Part shown: one piece after another, positions 2,414-58,953 of the stretch
Layout of the letters: the number at the start of each line of letters is the position of its first letter
Numbering within the stretch: position 1 is the stretch's first letter
Source of the DNA: a phage
Length of the DNA stretch: 64,000 bases
NCBI GenBank assembly: GCA_012441205.1
Contig: GCA_012441205.1_4705.1
Direction: 5' to 3' (one strand)
Made by a program: the position numbers and the translations under genes
Notes under the pieces: model-generated
What the model saw: only the letters and a program-made list of their open reading frames with translations
Database searches by the model: none
What the model was told of the DNA's origin: nothing

Positions 2414-3428
2414 TGTTCATTTTCTCCATTGCAACGAATCGTTCAAGCTCGCGTAATAAACGCTCTTTTAACGCAGGATCAACTTCCGGAGCATGTTTAT
2501 CACGATACCACTCTGTCCCGTTGTATTGCAGGCTAACATGCCATGTTCCTAACGGGCTTTCCTCTGCAGCGGCGATGAAATTCTTAACGCCGGTTTTGGT
2601 AGGATACTCCATGATAGGAATAGCCTGCTTCAGATCCATTACGGTAAGATCCTGGAAGTTATAATCCAGGAGCGTTAATGCACGTTTGTCGCGTAACAGT
2701 AACCCGCAATCCAAGATAGTGAAATCGATACCCCAAAATTGTAGCTTACCGCCCGTACTGATAGGAATATGACCGCGATAAACCGCGAGATAAATCTCAC
2801 CTTTATCGGTTTCTTTATTGTATCCTGCGATGAATGCTGCGGTAATTAACGGCTGATCGCCTTTCGCAAAGAAAACAGGATGCGTACGATAAAGCCAATC
2901 ATTACGGATTAAATCGGATACCTGACCTAAACGTGCCGTGGGCACCATTGTCGATCCTAAGTCACTATTACTAACTTCGAATTGGTAATATTCAAACAGA
3001 ACACCGTCGACTTCTTCTTTAGCGTATGGTTCACGATCCGGATTAGCGAGTATATAACGCAACTTATTATCGATTTCGGCTACGCGTTCCTCATGGGTAT
3101 CCATAAGGCTAGTGACGACGAAAGCAGCCAGATTACGTACGCTAAGGAACACGTCGTCTTTCTCCTGGTCGCTTAGTCCTTCTTCATCTGCTAGCGTTGT
3201 CCAATGCAGTGGTCCCTCCACCATTTTCAACCATTTGTCTTCACGCTCTGGGTAAACAAAGGGCTTGTGTACAGGAACGCTGGTATGCTGCACACGCAAT
3301 AGTAACGAACAAGGGGATTGCATTATCGACTCCCATGGCACTATACCACTCGTGACAGCGATGACGTGACGATTAAGAACAAGAGAAGCTGAATAAGTAA
3401 TGTTATCTAATCCTGGTAATTGATCCAT
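2391..3428 (-). CDS. hypothetical protein (345 aa)
   Basis: Long ORF immediately downstream of an AT-rich intergenic region; no recognisable motif. Confidence 0.55.
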   Translation of the reverse strand: MDQLPGLDNITYSASLVLNRHVIAVTSGIVPWESIMQSPCSLLLRVQHTSVPVHKPFVYPEREDKWLKMVEGPLHWTTLADEEGLSDQEKDDVFLSVRNLAAFVVTSLMDTHEERVAEIDNKLRYILANPDREPYAKEEVDGVLFEYYQFEVSNSDLGSTMVPTARLGQVSDLIRNDWLYRTHPVFFAKGDQPLITAAFIAGYNKETDKGEIYLAVYRGHIPISTGGKLQFWGIDFTILDCGLLLRDKRALTLLDYNFQDLTVMDLKQAIPIMEYPTKTGVKNFIAAAEESPLGTWHVSLQYNGTEWYRDKHAPEVDPALKERLLRELERFVAMEKMNNDVNDEQ

Positions 3429-3736
3429 GATAGAAATCCTTAGTATGTTTGATATGTTGTTTAATTAACATATTAAGTTTAAAAGAGGTTATGTTTTACG
3501 TATTGTTAATAACGTATTCTTATCTCTATTAAGTTATGTTCTATCTAAAGATAGTAAACAGATATAATGCTCCCCACCTCCCCATTCTCCCAAGTAATAC
3601 TGGCCTACCGGCCCTCTCCTTTTTAAGGGAGAGAGTAAGCATTCAGTATTGCTCAAATGAATAAGCAAAACAGTATAAACTTACCGTCTCGAGTTATCTC
3701 GAGACGGCGTAGTAGTATCTGTTTATCTCTTTTATG
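3429..3736 (-). promoter_or_regulatory. AT-rich intergenic regulatory region with several hairpins
   Basis: 308-nt non-coding, AT-rich stretch between two minus-strand genes; contains C-rich/G-rich inverted repeats around 3585-3640 and the terminator hairpin at 3684-3707. No confident -35/-10 assignment. Confidence 0.4.
3684..3707 (-). terminator. intrinsic terminator
   Basis: Perfect 10-bp inverted repeat CCGTCTCGAG-TTAT-CTCGAGACGG, followed on the minus strand by TAAGTTTATACTGTTTTGC; sits just 3' of the stop of gene 3737..4090. Confidence 0.6.
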
Positions 3737-4090: not shown

Positions 4091-4674
4091 GGGACATAAA
4101 CCTCCATCAACATCGCATAAAGCGCACCAAGCCCATGCAGGACTTGGTTAGGTGCAAAGGTCGGAGTGTAGCATACTTGTTCGGTTGGTGCTTGTTGACG
4201 TAAGTCTAACGGATCTCCGTTGATAAGCATCTGCAGGAGATCAGCATCATCTTGCAATGTGTCTTCATCGATATACGCATCAACACAAAGCAGTCGGTGT
4301 AACTGTTCTGGTTTAATTGAAATACCTACAACCATGCAGTTGTTGTAGGTGGCGTTGTCCAGAAAGAAGTGAATGACGCCCGCTTGAGGATCGCCACCGT
4401 AGTGGAGCCAACGCGTAAAACCAGCCGACATCATCCATAGCGGGTTGTGTTGTAACGCACTGACGACGCGGGTCTCGAAATCCAAACCAAACTTCTGGAA
4501 GATTGCGCCCATCTGGAAACGATCTTCATCGAGACGGTAACGGAATATACAGGCATCCGATCCCGTTGAGTTATCATACACCGAAAGATACCCACGATGG
4601 ATTTCCACGGTAACATTGTTGTCGTCAAGCGTGGCGCTCGCAACGCCGTTAGAAAAGGTTGGAACAAAGCTCAT
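4075..4674 (-). CDS. hypothetical protein (199 aa)
   Basis: ORF, start/stop overlap with neighbours (4671-4674). Confidence 0.5.
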   Translation of the reverse strand: MSFVPTFSNGVASATLDDNNVTVEIHRGYLSVYDNSTGSDACIFRYRLDEDRFQMGAIFQKFGLDFETRVVSALQHNPLWMMSAGFTRWLHYGGDPQAGVIHFFLDNATYNNCMVVGISIKPEQLHRLLCVDAYIDEDTLQDDADLLQMLINGDPLDLRQQAPTEQVCYTPTFAPNQVLHGLGALYAMLMEVYVPCFKN

Positions 4675-16931: not shown

Positions 16932-17822
16932 ATGCGTCCTGATAATACCCTACTCGGTGAACAGGGTGTTGGTGCTCTTAGCAACGCGGCTATGGTCGAT
17001 ATTCGTGCAGGTGCCCAAAACGGGTACATCAGCAATATCGGTACGTACGTTGCTAACGCCAACTACATTCCGAACCAAATGTTCTGTCTCCTGCTGGAGG
17101 CACCACGTGGTTTCAACTATCTACCTAACCCGGATGTACAGATTGGTTATCTGAAGGCGTTGGTAGAAGAAGTTGCGCATTCGATTACCGGTCTGCAACG
17201 CGGATTGGAAGTTGAATTCGTTAGCGTCCCGGTTTCTGGTTCCGGTGAAATCCAGGAAGAAGTCTCTGACGTTAAACGTCCTCGCTCTAACCCGACTTTC
17301 GGGATCTATGAGAAAGAAGGTCGTTCCGTTAGTTACTTCCTGGAACAATGGATCACGTATCTGTTGATGGATCCGGATGCCAAATACCCGATGTTGTCGT
17401 CTATCGTATCCACTGGTGGTCCAACCGACCTGCTGGCGGATTATCGTAGCGCAACAATGCTGTTCGTTGAGCCAGACCGCCAACACAAAAAAGTGGTTAA
17501 CGCCTGGCTGTGCACGAACATGATGCCTCACGGTACCGGTGACTGGACATCACGTCGTAACAAGAACGATGCGCCAAACGTGGTAGAATTGAGCATTCAG
17601 TTCACAGCGTTAACACAGACCAACTACGGCGTGCGTGCTTTTGCACAACGTCTGCTGGATAAGATGAACCTGCTCAAAGTGAACCCGGATTTCCGTCCGG
17701 CTTATCTGAGCGACATCGATCCGGCTGTGGCAGCGCAGAAGGTTGGCTACACCTTCGACTTTGATAACAACGATACCTTTGAGGTACCGAATACTTATCA
17801 AAACGTAACACCTCGCGTGTAA
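16932..17822 (+). CDS. putative tail tube protein
   Basis: 296 aa, starts 15 nt after the sheath candidate with GAGAGGAG RBS; followed by an A9 run and a hairpin terminator. Confidence 0.3.
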   Translation: MRPDNTLLGEQGVGALSNAAMVDIRAGAQNGYISNIGTYVANANYIPNQMFCLLLEAPRGFNYLPNPDVQIGYLKALVEEVAHSITGLQRGLEVEFVSVPVSGSGEIQEEVSDVKRPRSNPTFGIYEKEGRSVSYFLEQWITYLLMDPDAKYPMLSSIVSTGGPTDLLADYRSATMLFVEPDRQHKKVVNAWLCTNMMPHGTGDWTSRRNKNDAPNVVELSIQFTALTQTNYGVRAFAQRLLDKMNLLKVNPDFRPAYLSDIDPAVAAQKVGYTFDFDNNDTFEVPNTYQNVTPRV

Positions 17823-17847
17823 CGTAAAAAAAAAGCATATTAACCTC

Positions 17848-17884
17848 CCTTCCTTCCCCGGCCTTGACGGCTAGGGAAGGAAGG
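17848..17884. terminator. hairpin terminator between convergent genes
   Basis: CCTTCCTTCCC-(15 nt)-GGGAAGGAAGG followed by TTTATGGTTTATTT. Confidence 0.55.
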
Positions 17885-17896
17885 TTTATGGTTTAT

Positions 17897-18436
17897 TTAC
17901 TGTTTGTTCGTGGCTTCACGAATGAAAATGACATCAGGATATTCTTGAGATTCAATGAATTCAGGATTACGATAACGACGAATATGACGCATCGTTGTAC
18001 AAGCAAGTTTGTAAAGATGTTCCTCCTCACGTTGTGTTAATAACATCAGTTGCGCGTCTGGAATCACGAATGGGAGTCTTTCATTCACGTATTCCCGAAG
18101 GTCATCGAGATCATCGTGATGAATGCCCTCTGAGAGCTTATATAACGCTTCCAGCAATTCTAATCCACCGAACTGGTAACTTCCTATTGTCGTCTTAAAC
18201 AATGCGCCAGAACGCGTGGTGGATGCTCTATCGGCGACATCGTATTGTTCTAACATATATCCGTAGACCATGCTACGTCGATCCAGTGTATCCGTAACGA
18301 GATTACGCCACCGTTCCAGTCTTTCGAGCGCTTTGTCGATAGAGTAAACGATCATGCCATGTTCATCCAACTCTTCCGCAATACCCAATAGTTCATTGTT
18401 GTTAGGTTTTGCTGCACCGATAAGAAAAACACTCAT
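17897..18436 (-). CDS. hypothetical protein (179 aa)
   Basis: ORF; stop/start overlap with the upstream gene at 18436. Confidence 0.45.
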   Translation of the reverse strand: MSVFLIGAAKPNNNELLGIAEELDEHGMIVYSIDKALERLERWRNLVTDTLDRRSMVYGYMLEQYDVADRASTTRSGALFKTTIGSYQFGGLELLEALYKLSEGIHHDDLDDLREYVNERLPFVIPDAQLMLLTQREEEHLYKLACTTMRHIRRYRNPEFIESQEYPDVIFIREATNKQ

Positions 18437-19555: not shown

Positions 19556-19568
19556 GGTAATATAGACC
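19556..19568 (-). promoter_or_regulatory. putative phage promoter motif (GGTCTATATTACC on minus strand)
   Basis: Plus-strand GGTAATATAGACC; near-identical copies at 44242-44254 and 57368-57378, each 30-125 nt upstream of a minus-strand gene start. Confidence 0.4.
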
Positions 19569-29380: not shown

Positions 29381-29450
29381 CGCCTCAGGTCGCTACGCTG
29401 AGACCGCCTGCATGGATACGTACATCACAGGCTGCTTGCACTTTCATGCA

Positions 29451-29756
29451 AGAGGAGACTATATCAAACCGGCAGCACAACCTGCTACGGTAACCTACAC
29501 TTCGAAGACGCTCGTCCTCTACAGGGTGGTAAATCCCTTAGTCGTTGAACCTGCGTTGTTTCCCATTCTTGCAAACAAGAATGCCGTATTGCTACGCAAC
29601 AACCAGGCTGCTGATTGCCCATTGTTTCGCACCTTAGCACCGCTTACGCGGCTTTTCTTTCAGCCTAAGCCTCTTACGGAGTTAGTGCATCTCAACTGTT
29701 GTTTCTGCCTTTCGGCACCTCATGGGTCGTTGAGCTTTAGGGGTTCCCAGCAATTC
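29451..29756 (-). ncRNA. group I intron catalytic core (P3-P9 region)
   Basis: P, Q, R and S elements as above; GNRA-loop hairpins flank the core (CCCGAAAGGG near 29775-29790 and CTTGCATGAAAGTGCAAG near 29435-29452). Confidence 0.7.
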
Positions 29757-29805
29757 GTAGGTTTTTCAAGCACTCCCTTTCGGGAATACCGGACTCATTA
29801 TTAGC

Positions 29806-31278
29806 TTATTTATTCAAGTATCTGAAATCCCACTTATCTTTACGTCGTTTATCGCACTTAATGTCAGGATGATTAACACGATGCCTAATAGTTGTTGCCG
29901 ATAGCTGGCTGAGATTCTCAGCAGATCGTGCGCCAAGAACAACGAGTTTTGTGTCGTCTGGACGCGTAACTTCTACTGCCCGATAATGCTTACGTAACAC
30001 ATCACGCCAATATTCACGACGTTCTGGTTCAGCATACTCAAGCATGTAACCGTTAACATCTACTAAACCGTAGCTTTCGTTTAATCGAGAGGTAGCGGCT
30101 GGTTTACTAATACCGATTGCTTTAGCCGCATCGACCACGGTTTTATACGGGGTCTCATTACCGTCTCTATCTACAACCACAATGAAATCTGGACGTGAAT
30201 CGAGTAGCTGCTGTCTGCGTTCGACGGCTTGTTGATGAAGCACCATGTTAACGTGTTCGAACCCGTAACCTTCTGGGCCACGCCATCCTGGATTGTTGTT
30301 CGCTCGATAAAGTATCGTCGATGATTTCACTCCAGTCTGACGCGATGCCTCGTTTGCGCTATGAACAACCGTGGTAGAGCCATCAGGATGATATATCCGT
30401 ATCTGGTTCATTATACCGGAACCAATGAAGTTACCATCGGCTGATTTAATGTCCGGCCATGGTTGCGGGTCATCTTTGAATTTAACCACCCAGCGGTTGT
30501 TAAACAGCTTAACTTTTCGAACATGTTTGCCTAATGTCGTATCCGTAACACCTGCGACCACTGACGCTTGTGTAATGCTCAGGTACTCAGTAACGGTATC
30601 GTTCCAAGTATCCCAGAGCAGAACCGGTTTATTGTCGTCACGTAAACCATGTTCGATAGCATGCAGGACATTACGACTTCTGGTTGCCCATTCCAGATTG
30701 TCAAGAGAATAGTTCCACTTATCAGCATCAAGATGATTAACGTCCATCTTATCGACATTAGCCGGATATTCCCGCCACGCCAACATCAAGCAGCGATGTA
30801 AAACCTTAGTTCTCGTTGTATCTCGACAATCGTGACGTAGACTAATGAATACGTAGTTATCCTTTTTCGGATACGATCTGCATTCCTGTCCATCCTTGCG
30901 GGAGATAACTCGCCCTTTCTCATTTATCAGATAACGAGTATGTCCAGGAATAACACGATAACCAGGGTACTTAGCGATCTCATAAGCAGGCTCGAAACGA
31001 TAGGATAAGTTATCAACATCCCAATTAGATTCGTCGCCGTCAACAAACATCGCTTTGACGTACTTCTGTGTTTCAATATCAACCAGGATGTTTTTGTGTG
31101 CGATACAAATCAATGCTGGGATATTGAATTCGCGACCAGCTAAAGTAACAGTGTCGCCGTTTCTCGGTATCGCGACGTGGGTATCACGATACCGTAAGTT
31201 TCCATAGCCGTCTATTTCAATCCAGCTCAGAAACGGAATAGATATAAATTCTTTTTCAGATACTCGCCATTTAAACAT
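29806..31278 (-). CDS. HNH homing endonuclease (intron-encoded)
   Basis: 490 aa; HNH motif VNHLDADKWNYSLDNLEWATRSRNVLHA and an N-terminal NUMOD4-like segment YPGYRVIPGHTRYLINEKGRVIS; own ATG at 31278 with AGGTG RBS; located in the 5' peripheral region of the intron. Confidence 0.8.
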   Translation of the reverse strand: MFKWRVSEKEFISIPFLSWIEIDGYGNLRYRDTHVAIPRNGDTVTLAGREFNIPALICIAHKNILVDIETQKYVKAMFVDGDESNWDVDNLSYRFEPAYEIAKYPGYRVIPGHTRYLINEKGRVISRKDGQECRSYPKKDNYVFISLRHDCRDTTRTKVLHRCLMLAWREYPANVDKMDVNHLDADKWNYSLDNLEWATRSRNVLHAIEHGLRDDNKPVLLWDTWNDTVTEYLSITQASVVAGVTDTTLGKHVRKVKLFNNRWVVKFKDDPQPWPDIKSADGNFIGSGIMNQIRIYHPDGSTTVVHSANEASRQTGVKSSTILYRANNNPGWRGPEGYGFEHVNMVLHQQAVERRQQLLDSRPDFIVVVDRDGNETPYKTVVDAAKAIGISKPAATSRLNESYGLVDVNGYMLEYAEPERREYWRDVLRKHYRAVEVTRPDDTKLVVLGARSAENLSQLSATTIRHRVNHPDIKCDKRRKDKWDFRYLNK

Positions 31279-44241: not shown

Positions 44242-44254
44242 AGGTAATATAGTC
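44242..44254 (-). promoter_or_regulatory. putative phage promoter motif (GGACTATATTACC on minus strand)
   Basis: Plus-strand GGTAATATAGTCC in a divergent intergenic region; same motif as at 19556 and 57368. Confidence 0.4.
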
Positions 44255-54834: not shown

Positions 54835-54848
54835 TTATGCTGTCAAGC

Positions 54849-54864
54849 AAAAAAAAAAAAAAAA
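54849..54864. repeat. 16-nt poly(A)/poly(T) homopolymer tract
   Basis: A16 on the plus strand between two hairpins in a convergent intergenic region; reads as T16 downstream of the minus-strand gene ending at 54910. Confidence 0.8.
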
Positions 54865-57367: not shown

Positions 57368-57378
57368 GTAATATAGCC
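57368..57378 (-). promoter_or_regulatory. putative phage promoter motif (GGCTATATTAC on minus strand)
   Basis: Plus-strand GTAATATAGCC, about 30 nt upstream of the ATG at 57336. Confidence 0.4.
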
Positions 57379-57486: not shown

Positions 57487-58308
57487 ATGGAAAAAGTATT
57501 TGTTTGTAAGTTGTTTACCAACGGCAATAGCCAACCAATGTATCTGACCGATCCTGTTCTAGGTAATCGGAACAGTACCGTATTCAAAGAGGCTTTCGAA
57601 TACGCTAAAAATAAAGCCGTGAGAACACTGACGTCTGATGACTGTATCAACGGTATCACGTGGGCAGAGTTAATCGGTGATGCCGTTCGACACTTCGTTC
57701 GGGATGCGAGAAAACGGGAAATCTGTCTCACGACTATTGTTGTGCGTGAAAACGCAGAAATTTTATCAAACGTTTTGGTTGATTTTAATGACGTTTGTGT
57801 GTTTAATCCAGAGAACACGTTTGAACAATACCTTACTGCCCTGAACAACCAGCTCGGTAAAGATATTCATCCCGAATTCGCCAAGTTAACATATCAGTTA
57901 CTTTTTGACGACGTCGATCCAAATACGAAGATCGATACCAGCTTATCGCCCCTGGTAAAGAAATACGGATCGGTTCTCGCTACGGCAACACCCACCACCG
58001 ATGGTGGTTATGATATCGAATTGGATGATCCATTAAAAGAACAAGAGCCTACTGGGGTTAGGGCGGTACATCACAACCTCGTCGTTAAATCTGATGGATG
58101 CGATGAACATTACGCTATGATAAACGATGAAAACAATTACCGTTTAAGTCAAGCGATTGGTGTTCTACGCTATACCGAACCCACTGTTGTAGACGATTAT
58201 ACATCGACAACAACGCACACCACGTGTTTCATTTTCATCTATCCCAATGAAAGTGTGTACATTACCGACTGCTATGGCAATACCGTAGATAGCTTACGTC
58301 GTTATTGA
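57487..58308 (+). CDS. hypothetical protein (273 aa)
   Basis: ATG at 57487 (ORF-track start 57469 is a TTG); followed by a classic terminator. Confidence 0.5.
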   Translation: MEKVFVCKLFTNGNSQPMYLTDPVLGNRNSTVFKEAFEYAKNKAVRTLTSDDCINGITWAELIGDAVRHFVRDARKREICLTTIVVRENAEILSNVLVDFNDVCVFNPENTFEQYLTALNNQLGKDIHPEFAKLTYQLLFDDVDPNTKIDTSLSPLVKKYGSVLATATPTTDGGYDIELDDPLKEQEPTGVRAVHHNLVVKSDGCDEHYAMINDENNYRLSQAIGVLRYTEPTVVDDYTSTTTHTTCFIFIYPNESVYITDCYGNTVDSLRRY

Positions 58309-58314
58309 TTATCG

Positions 58315-58345
58315 AGCCTGTCCTTCGGGGCAGGCTTTTTATGCT
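58315..58345 (+). terminator. rho-independent terminator
   Basis: 9-bp stem AGCCTGTCC / GGGCAGGCT with TTCG loop, followed by TTTTTATGCTGTT. Confidence 0.65.
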
Positions 58346-58411
58346 GTTAAATATCAGGAATAAGAATTAACAAAATAGGAAAATGGTGTGTATATAACAC
58401 AAAGGAGGGAG

Positions 58412-58534
58412 ATGATTATGTTACTCATTCTAATGGAGAGAGCATTGCTGGCGGGTATCTGCGCATTCTCTGTTAAACACGCTGTTGCTATCATGGCTGA
58501 AGAAAGGCGTAATACGCATAATGTATTACGCTGA
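58412..58534 (+). CDS. small hydrophobic protein (38-40 aa) not in ORF track
   Basis: AAAGGAGGGAG RBS (58401-58411), then ATG at 58412 or 58418. Translation MIMLLILMERALLAGICAFSVKHAVAIMAEERRNTHNVLR-stop, with a hydrophobic N-terminal half and basic C-terminus. Preceded by TGTATATAACAC and a TTAACA hexamer about 18 nt further upstream. Confidence 0.4.
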   Translation: MIMLLILMERALLAGICAFSVKHAVAIMAEERRNTHNVLR

Positions 58535-58644
58535 AAACACTGTGTGCATTAGTGTATGACGAGAAATCGTCGAGGCCCCCGTCTTCACGAGGGCCAACAC
58601 CTATGCATGATTATTCATCGTCTGTTAAACAAAAGGTTATAAAC

Positions 58645-58953
58645 ATGAGCAATTTGAACGTTGAATTTACTTCAACAACGCCTGTCATGAATGGTGTTGG
58701 CACTGAAACCAAAATCGTATTAGAACCCATTCCAGGGTTACGCGATCTCGGTGATTTTTATCCACTGATGCCGCGTATACGGAAGGCCTTAAACAGTATC
58801 GATCTTGATTCCAATAAAGATTTCCAACACGATACAGAAAATACCGATCATGTATTGCTGCCATCAGGGATCGCAAAATTCACCTACACGCAAACATTGA
58901 AAGCCTCTGATGGTGAAATCCGTCGTTTTATCGTTGAAGTAGAAAGCGCATAA
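58645..58953 (+). CDS. hypothetical protein (102 aa)
   Basis: ATG at 58645 with AAAAGG about 9 nt upstream (ORF-track start at 58552 looks too early). Confidence 0.45.
   Translation: MSNLNVEFTSTTPVMNGVGTETKIVLEPIPGLRDLGDFYPLMPRIRKALNSIDLDSNKDFQHDTENTDHVLLPSGIAKFTYTQTLKASDGEIRRFIVEVESA

Follow-up and report, generated by a model that had tools for sequence, protein, structure and literature searches.

Small single-helix membrane proteins of fewer than 50 amino acids (aa), for example AcrZ, MgtS and KdpF, occur in bacteria, and small bacterial proteins of such size commonly act as a membrane helix or as a helix packed on a partner. A phage gene of comparable length is gp006 of Goslar (Escherichia phage vB_EcoM_Goslar), a nucleus-forming jumbo phage of E. 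coli, whose GenBank record (NC_048170) lists it at 3610–3726 as a coding sequence of 38 codons for a 'hypothetical protein' (Goslar_00006/HOV27_gp006; QBO63799.1, YP_009820691.1) and assigns it no function; no paper was found that deals with its function or mentions it. Here we describe its ortholog, a small gene of 38 codons plus TGA at 58418–58534 (+) of a 64,000-nucleotide (nt) stretch of phage DNA (NCBI GenBank assembly GCA_012441205.1, contig GCA_012441205.1_4705.1), hereafter the window, together with an invariant structured block at 58506–58608 that takes in the 3' end of the gene and lies ahead of the virion-protein gene gp007. The block is compared below with the late promoters of phiKZ, which are used by the non-virion RNA polymerase and carry 5'-TATG-3', the G being position +1; they also need the sequence beyond this position, in which no consensus is visible (PMC4666361, PMC12809450).

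The 2.3-kb stretch around the small frame is 97.3% identical to Goslar, and a search of the phage collection with it gave no match besides Goslar; in this stretch, the coordinate in the Goslar record equals the window coordinate minus 54808. The window gene shares with Goslar gp006 its peptide, its position between gp005 and gp007 and the preceding terminator, and differs only by flanking substitutions. The peptide, MLLILMERALLAGICAFSVKHAVAIMAEERRNTHNVLR, which contains ALLAGICAFSVK, HAVAIMAEER and NTHNVLR, is 100% identical to the Goslar product (40/40 residues in tblastn), and from 58393 to 58614 the DNA equals that of Goslar at every base. The small frame is the gp006 ortholog and was already known as a gene prediction; the description of it as unannotated in an earlier, sequence-only reading of the window (the initial annotation) holds only for the ORF (open reading frame) track of that reading. 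Compared with AcrZ, MgtS and KdpF, gp006 is similar in size, has a single predicted helix with a hydrophobic N-terminal part and a basic, cytoplasmic-type tail, and possesses its own strong ribosome-binding site; unlike them, it has its hydrophobic stretch cut by two charged pairs and an unfavourable insertion energy, and it bears no sequence relationship to them.

Upstream of the frame, AAAGGAGGGAG occupies 58401–58411 and includes the Shine-Dalgarno sequence AAGGAGG (58402–58408, +); it is followed by ATG at 58412, ATT at 58415 and ATG at 58418, and the frame closes with TGA at 58532–58534. The strong ribosome-binding site, the ATG-ATT-ATG succession and the open frame were all as the initial annotation had described them, and its 40-residue translation matches exactly. 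The GGAGG core is separated from the first ATG by 3 nt and from the second by 9 nt, and a spacing of 9 nt is the workable one for initiation in E. coli. The codon at 58415–58417 varies freely among relatives (ATT, ATC, ACT or AAC), and the product is 38 aa long in every gene call of the public assemblies. Because of the spacing, the unconserved codon and these gene calls, the second ATG, at 58418, is likely the start, and the in-frame ATG-ATT at 58412–58417 (+), with its ATG 3 nt from GGAGG and its second codon not conserved, is probably not. One relative has GTG at 58418, and the GAGG/GGAG core of the Shine-Dalgarno sequence is present in all relatives.

Relatives were compared in an unbiased set of 11 sequences, which had been reached via gp007 or DNA similarity and never via the peptide; its members include Goslar (DNA similarity), two IMG/VR contigs, six metagenome contigs (via gp007) and the window itself. 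Across codons 2–38, 19 sites vary, 14 synonymously and 5 non-synonymously, distributed 4/2/13 over the three codon positions; outside the hairpin described below the figures are 13 and 4, and gp007 has 34 synonymous and 10 non-synonymous sites in the same set. When these 19 changes were placed at random on positions with an identical starting base, a mean of 6.1 fell on synonymous sites, and at least 14 did so once in 10,000 trials (P = 1e-4); binomial estimates of the excess ranged from 4e-6 to 1e-4. Pairwise ratios of non-synonymous to synonymous change (dN/dS) against the two most divergent lineages of the set were 0.13 and 0.15. Read in four of the five other frames, the same variation yields 2–4 synonymous against 14–15 non-synonymous changes plus 2–3 stops. 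The comparison shows the amino-acid sequence of gp006 to be under purifying selection whose strength, by the measure of these substitutions, equals that on gp007, the adjacent virion-protein gene. The synonymous excess, together with the gp007-like pattern, leads us to regard the frame as translated, so that the small gene is very probably real; since the selection acts on amino acids, the peptide itself would have a function.

This pattern bears on the alternative of a chance ORF in a non-coding leader that is never translated and owes its conservation to RNA or DNA signals only. ORF length and a Shine-Dalgarno motif are indeed weak evidence of coding, and it is the substitution pattern that makes the case: ORFs of 20–50 codons are common by chance, and only about 8 of the 18 GGAGG(4–10 nt)ATG sites in the window start a long ORF, which leaves 10 such strong pairs elsewhere, several of the sites lying in terminator stems. 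Part of the frame is, moreover, clearly constrained at the nucleotide level. Against a chance frame stand the synonymous excess and the fact that, outside the structured part, third codon positions are free to vary (12/28), whereas first and second positions are not. In addition, none of the 31 related sequences departs from the start, stop and length of the frame, with not one indel or stop in the sense frame despite indels in both flanking spacers, and conservation extends to the Shine-Dalgarno sequence and the start codon. We therefore regard an untranslated chance frame as very unlikely, and the suggestion of the initial annotation that a small gene with a strong ribosome-binding site, which is also conserved, is encoded here is upheld by the substitution pattern and by the intact frame in 31/31 sequences.

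Several observations pull the other way on translation and selection. The relatives are all close (at least 83% DNA identity), the selection test rests on 19 sites, and lineage L009 shows the contrary proportion of 6 non-synonymous to 1 synonymous change. A first sample of 24 loci gave 10 synonymous and 19 non-synonymous sites; it was rejected as biased, nine of its loci having been retrieved with variant peptides and ten with the exact one, and the test was discarded because selection by peptide distorts the synonymous/non-synonymous ratio. No promoter could be assigned to gp006 by a sigma-70-like scan or by a search for the early motif. The peptide is likewise unseen in virion proteomics, inasmuch as gp006 has no entry in the Goslar virion mass-spectrometry table as consulted, which covers virions only and not infected cells.

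An antisense ORF of 46 codons at 58354–58494 (-), with which the small gene shares third positions, was considered as a coding frame and rejected. No stop interrupts it in any of the 31 relatives, and within its overlap with the sense frame it imitates the codon pattern; elsewhere it shows 2 synonymous and 11 non-synonymous changes with no periodicity, and it lacks both a Shine-Dalgarno sequence and a conserved stop.

Regarding the source of gp006 transcripts, the candidates are the TATG at 58340–58343, in the tail of the gp005 terminator, and read-through from gp005. A phiKZ-middle-like AGAATTAAC at 58363–58371 was rejected as gp006 promoter, as it found no support elsewhere in Goslar. Upstream of gp006, the early (virion RNA polymerase) promoter motif was not present: the sequence there, GGTGTG(T/A)ATATAACAC, has a core only partly like that motif and is variable among relatives. 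The motif in question, TTTCACGG-CTATATTAC-TTAnGTGA, which is of chimallivirus early type and looks like an early (virion polymerase) promoter, has eight intergenic copies in Goslar, one of them upstream of the nuclear-shell gene chmA. In the window, exact CTATATTAC cores within the longer motif lie at 57368–57376 (-), 19557–19565 (-) and 44244–44252 (-), upstream of minus-strand genes, and a true copy of the motif stands upstream of gp004.

The peptide was modelled with AlphaFold2, with ten variants, as one continuous helix over residues 2–37 (mean predicted local distance difference test score, pLDDT, 84). Hydrophobic residues predominate among its first 27 (Kyte-Doolittle mean 1.97 over residues 1–19, with a low hydrophobic moment), its last 11 (EERRNTHNVLR) are charged, and the C-terminal NTHNVLR is invariant among relatives. 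Two features speak against a transmembrane span: the hydrophobic stretch is interrupted by the charged pairs E7-R8 and K20-H21, which leave runs of 6, 11 and 6 residues, so that the longest uncharged run measures only 11, and on the position-independent Hessa scale the best sum for 19 residues is +2.3 kcal/mol, which is unfavourable for membrane insertion. On the same scale, the Goslar membrane proteins gp128 and gp101 score -0.2 and -4.0, respectively, and TisB, used as a yardstick only, scores +2.0. The single-helix membrane peptide of the initial annotation thus stands as far as the predicted helix, its hydrophobic N-terminal two-thirds and its charged tail are concerned, with insertion into the membrane borderline. 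From these models, the helix is possibly membrane-inserted, in our view somewhat short of an even chance, and a soluble or partner-bound helix appears less probable still, although burial against a partner protein accounts for the observed properties as fairly as insertion does.

Searches for homologues indicate that gp006 is an orphan of Goslar-like phages. No family in Pfam, PHROGs or NCBIfam matched the peptide. A profile search of 1.84 billion representative proteins recovered only its own cluster and P0012, which was dismissed as a distant homologue because it is a repetitive, spurious ORF. No distant homologue was found by tblastn against phages or in a collection of 5.8 billion proteins, and Erwinia phages with a distant relative of gp005 have no such ORF. 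Goslar gp128, also of 38 aa, is unrelated. Within the group, an index of public assemblies lists the exact peptide in 814 blocks, and the 5.8-billion-protein collection holds nine variant clusters of it.

A hydrophobic N-terminal part followed by a charged C-terminal tail, two in-frame ATGs two codons apart and a setting among late or virion genes are also what a lysis protein might display, namely a small holin, an antiholin or a single-span lysis peptide with a Met-Ile-Met dual start like that of lambda S. The lambda holins S105 and S107 are an example of the dual-start motif and share with gp006 both the paired ATGs and the charged tail. Dual-start holins have two or three spans, whereas gp006 has one hydrophobic segment, which is broken by charges. 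Only 3 nt separate the first ATG from the Shine-Dalgarno core, and the middle codon of the dual start, which is not conserved (Ile, Thr or Asn), adds no charge. No annotated endolysin adjoins the gene: gp024 (record 17700–18335) is about 14 kb and gp098 (record 110508–111005) about 107 kb away, the neighbours encode virion proteins and thymidylate kinase, and no holin family in Pfam, PHROGs or NCBIfam matches. A holin role is far better suited to Goslar gp101, which lies about 1 kb from gp098, has 63 aa and two strong spans, and scores -4.0 as given above. The holin-like label given by the initial annotation is not supported, and we rate a lysis function of gp006 as highly improbable. The gene gp101 itself (Goslar record 111935–112126, minus strand; 4335–4526 in locus L043), whose product has a basic tail besides its two segments of strong hydrophobicity, is a plausible holin candidate of Goslar.

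The same annotation had also offered a type I toxin-like protein. Such a module would pair a toxic hydrophobic peptide with an antisense RNA over its 3' end, which here would be the minus strand of the structured block. The peptide falls within the size range (38 aa, below 60), is helical, comes close to TisB in hydrophobicity on the same scale and, like TisB, is a short hydrophobic helix with charges inside it. The minus strand of 58500–58610 folds well (z = -5.6), with a hairpin and then a weak T-rich tail. No antisense RNA signal accompanies it: neither a promoter-like site on the minus strand nearby nor the phage early-promoter motif occurs there, and the hairpins fit the sense strand, on which one of them presents a GAAA tetraloop, on which alone four G-U pairs exist, and on which alone the changes C58508T and A58607G keep pairing. 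In contrast to typical type I toxin messages, 58340–58470 folds no better than shuffled sequences (z = +0.27) and its centroid structure leaves the Shine-Dalgarno sequence free of pairing, so the ribosome-binding region is not sequestered by a translation-blocking fold. Finally, the locus lies between virion genes of a strictly lytic phage. The toxin interpretation is not supported and is, in our estimate, extremely improbable.

In the reading that we prefer, translation of gp006 would be driven by its own strong ribosome-binding site from the start at 58418 and yield a single alpha-helix of about 36 residues, within a product hydrophobic over its first 27 residues and charged over its last 11. 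Expression would probably coincide with that of the late genes, because gp006 sits between two virion-protein genes, and the helix probably acts either in the inner membrane, with the N-terminus out and the basic tail in, or packed on a partner protein. The structured block would most likely be one of the expression signals of gp007: a late promoter of the phiKZ TATG type with a 5' hairpin that begins at the +1 G (58558), a structure for mRNA stability or processing, or both. Taken as a whole, namely a gp006 ortholog that is translated from 58418, makes a functional helix and overlaps a block constrained separately, this explanation is the best we can offer, and we hold it to be rather probable.

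The block comprises the last nine codons of the small gene, its stop and the next 74 nt. It consists of an 11-bp hairpin at 58506–58532 (+), which takes in the last nine codons and ends on the first base of the stop, and of a Y-shaped three-way junction at 58544–58608 (+), which is made up of an outer stem, an inner stem, a hairpin with a GAAA loop (58558–58571) and a second hairpin (58574–58595). A variable linker of 12 nt, which differs among lineages, separates the hairpin from the junction. The junction carries TATG at 58555–58558 and again at 58602–58605, both invariant. A 111-nt stretch folds at -42.5 kcal/mol, compared with -24.2 +/- 3.4 kcal/mol for shuffled sequences (z = -5.4).

Within both structured parts, 2 of 88 sites vary in the unbiased set, against 22 of 37 in the spacer 58607–58644 (Fisher 1e-12). 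The hairpin has only 1–2 variable sites among 26, and the junction 1 of 62 in the unbiased relatives and 2 of 62 in all 31 sequences. Third codon positions, of which 12/28 vary in the first 29 codons, vary at 1/9 inside the hairpin; because they are frozen there and free upstream, the constraint in the block, as judged from this variation, is on nucleotides and not on protein. In a relative of 87% identity (L037), the block is intact and 13 of the next 38 bases are changed; this pattern, together with the lineage-variable linker, argues for selection rather than a recent recombination tract.

The consensus fold of the block is kept across relatives. The pair-touching changes C58508T, G58506A and A58607G all retain a standard pair on the plus strand, on which the G-U pairs lie, and two of the three would break pairing on the minus strand. 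None of the Rfam 15 covariance models matched 58506–58608 on either strand at E <=1, and the gathering score of an Rfam model was reached in the window only by a group I intron elsewhere. No tRNA-like gene was predicted in the block, and the window holds no second copy of it. A pattern of the stems only was found once in each of three Goslar-like IMG/VR contigs and in none of the GTDB genomes. Farther apart, the consensus fold also pairs 58410–58422, at the start of the small gene, with 58641–58655, at the start of gp007. This helix is short and AU-rich, spans 230 nt and bears one-sided, mostly pair-keeping changes; it may well be due to chance.

In favour of a promoter, the block resembles the phiKZ late promoters in having an invariant TATG upstream of the gene for an abundant virion protein. 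The G of TATG 58555–58558 is the first base of the hairpin 58558–58571, the conserved region runs from about -52 to +49 around G58558, and this TATG lies 87 nt upstream of gp007. In Goslar, a TATG whose G opens a hairpin of at least 4 bp was found upstream of 6 of 10 abundant virion genes and 7 of 121 others (Fisher 5e-5), a comparison that is post hoc, as the pattern had first been noticed in some of these genes; the 10 are those with an upstream region of their own (Goslar; L001, L040–L044). The genes with TATG and hairpin are gp007, gp023, gp041, gp088, gp214 and gp218, the motif standing 37–86 nt upstream. A relative with a sheath protein of only 83% identity shows no change in the TATG upstream of the sheath gene or in the 43 nt that follow it; for the region upstream of the major capsid gene, the available genomes are too similar to inform on conservation.

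On the other side of this account of the block, pair-for-pair compensatory changes are absent, as almost nothing varies; the combination of TATG and hairpin is not enriched genome-wide over control 4-mers or other G positions; and the phiKZ promoter P119L has no hairpin at +1. TATG is too short a motif to be specific as promoter evidence. The block further departs from phiKZ late promoters in its second invariant TATG, at 58602, and from P119L in the +1 hairpin seen in Goslar, and its start site is a prediction. From this analysis, service to gp007 expression as a late promoter plus structured leader is our best guess, at about even odds, the alternatives being mRNA processing or stability, or coupling to gp006 translation. 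The more specific proposal that the block is the complete late promoter and leader of gp007, defined by a hairpin at the +1 G of TATG that is itself flanked by hairpins, is considerably less secure and, in our judgement, unlikely.

Coupling to translation leads to a further alternative, in which gp006 would be a regulatory upstream ORF: the translating ribosome would melt the hairpin 58506–58532 and the 5' strand of the junction, thereby altering the stability, processing or translation of the gp007 message, and the peptide would be a by-product or an arrest or leader peptide. The geometry is suggestive, with the stop and the last nine codons inside the invariant hairpin and the invariant junction about 10 nt on, with an invariant NTHNVLR C-terminus, and with a consensus fold that joins the start regions of gp006 and gp007 through pair-preserving, one-sided changes only. 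Amino-acid selection across the peptide outside the hairpin (13 synonymous and 4 non-synonymous sites) is not predicted by a model in which only the act of translation matters. Nor does the arrangement downstream agree with an upstream ORF or leader peptide: no conserved structure extends beyond 58608, the ribosome-binding region of gp007 (58607–58644) is the most variable stretch of the locus and has no conserved pairing, and 110 nt separate the gp006 stop from gp007. A DNA or RNA signal for gp007 would account just as well for the unchanging last codons. We consider a purely regulatory upstream ORF improbable and retain a functional peptide with a separately constrained block as the preferred reading.

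Around the small gene, the order is gp004 (-), gp005 (+), terminator, small frame, gp007 (+), bidirectional terminator and thymidylate kinase (-), and the synteny of gp005, small gene and gp007 with the convergent thymidylate kinase gene is kept in the gene maps of at least 20 contigs. The upstream gene gp005 (57487–58308, +; 273 aa) encodes a low-copy virion-associated protein and is followed at 58314–58345 (+) by an intrinsic terminator, which was found by a terminator scan, is also annotated in Goslar and is invariant in relatives. The terminator has its stem at 58314–58337 and continues with TTTTTATGC, the TATG in its tail being conserved; the stem and the T run bear out the terminator reported by the initial annotation. 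The spacer between the gp005 stop and the gp007 start was also rightly noted there, although it measures 336 nt (58309–58644) and not 335. The downstream gene gp007 (58645–58953, +; 102 aa) is 99% identical to HOV27_gp007, an abundant virion-associated protein in Goslar. By mass spectrometry, each virion has about 250 copies of HOV27_gp007 and about 8 of HOV27_gp005, and gp7 is listed in the same 2026 preprint among the Goslar proteins with more than 200 copies per virion (bioRxiv 10.64898/2026.04.21.720040).

Some further observations concern these neighbours. The Goslar-like L011 (ENA ERZ28649724, locus 2633–3001) has lost almost all of gp005 by deletion and retains the terminator, small gene, invariant block and gp007. 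Depending on the genome, gp007 is called with 116 or 102 aa (window 58603–58645): a 1-nt indel in the A run 58627–58631 shifts an upstream ATG at 58603 into or out of the gp007 frame, and the conserved form is the shorter one, with its start at 58645. At about 54835–54864, the window has a bidirectional terminator followed by TTATGCTGTCAA and a run of 16 A, which is the linearisation point of the Goslar GenBank record; this site and 58339–58350, after the gp005 terminator, share TTATGCTGT(T/C)AA. The group I intron of the window lies at 29435–29821 (-), in the RNA polymerase beta-subunit region (Rfam RF00028, 57.8 bits), and Goslar has an Intron_gpI annotated at the same place.

The small gene is an ordinary but well-supported phage orphan micropeptide gene, and the holin or toxin reading given to it earlier is corrected by the present analysis. 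It adds a 38-codon orphan of a nucleus-forming jumbo phage that, by its substitution pattern, is under protein-level selection, and tests of this kind are rare for very short phage ORFs. The only element of wider interest at the locus is the invariant block: about 100 nt in length, overlapping the end of the small gene and lying ahead of the gene for a virion protein of about 250 copies per virion, it provides a concrete place at which to test for determinants of late promoters or stable messages besides TATG. If the block proved to be the complete promoter and leader of gp007, the +1 hairpin would be the missing 'downstream element' that selects functional TATG sites for the non-virion RNA polymerase in Goslar-like phages, and the overlap with gp006 would couple translation of its last codons to the transcription of gp007 or the stability of its message.

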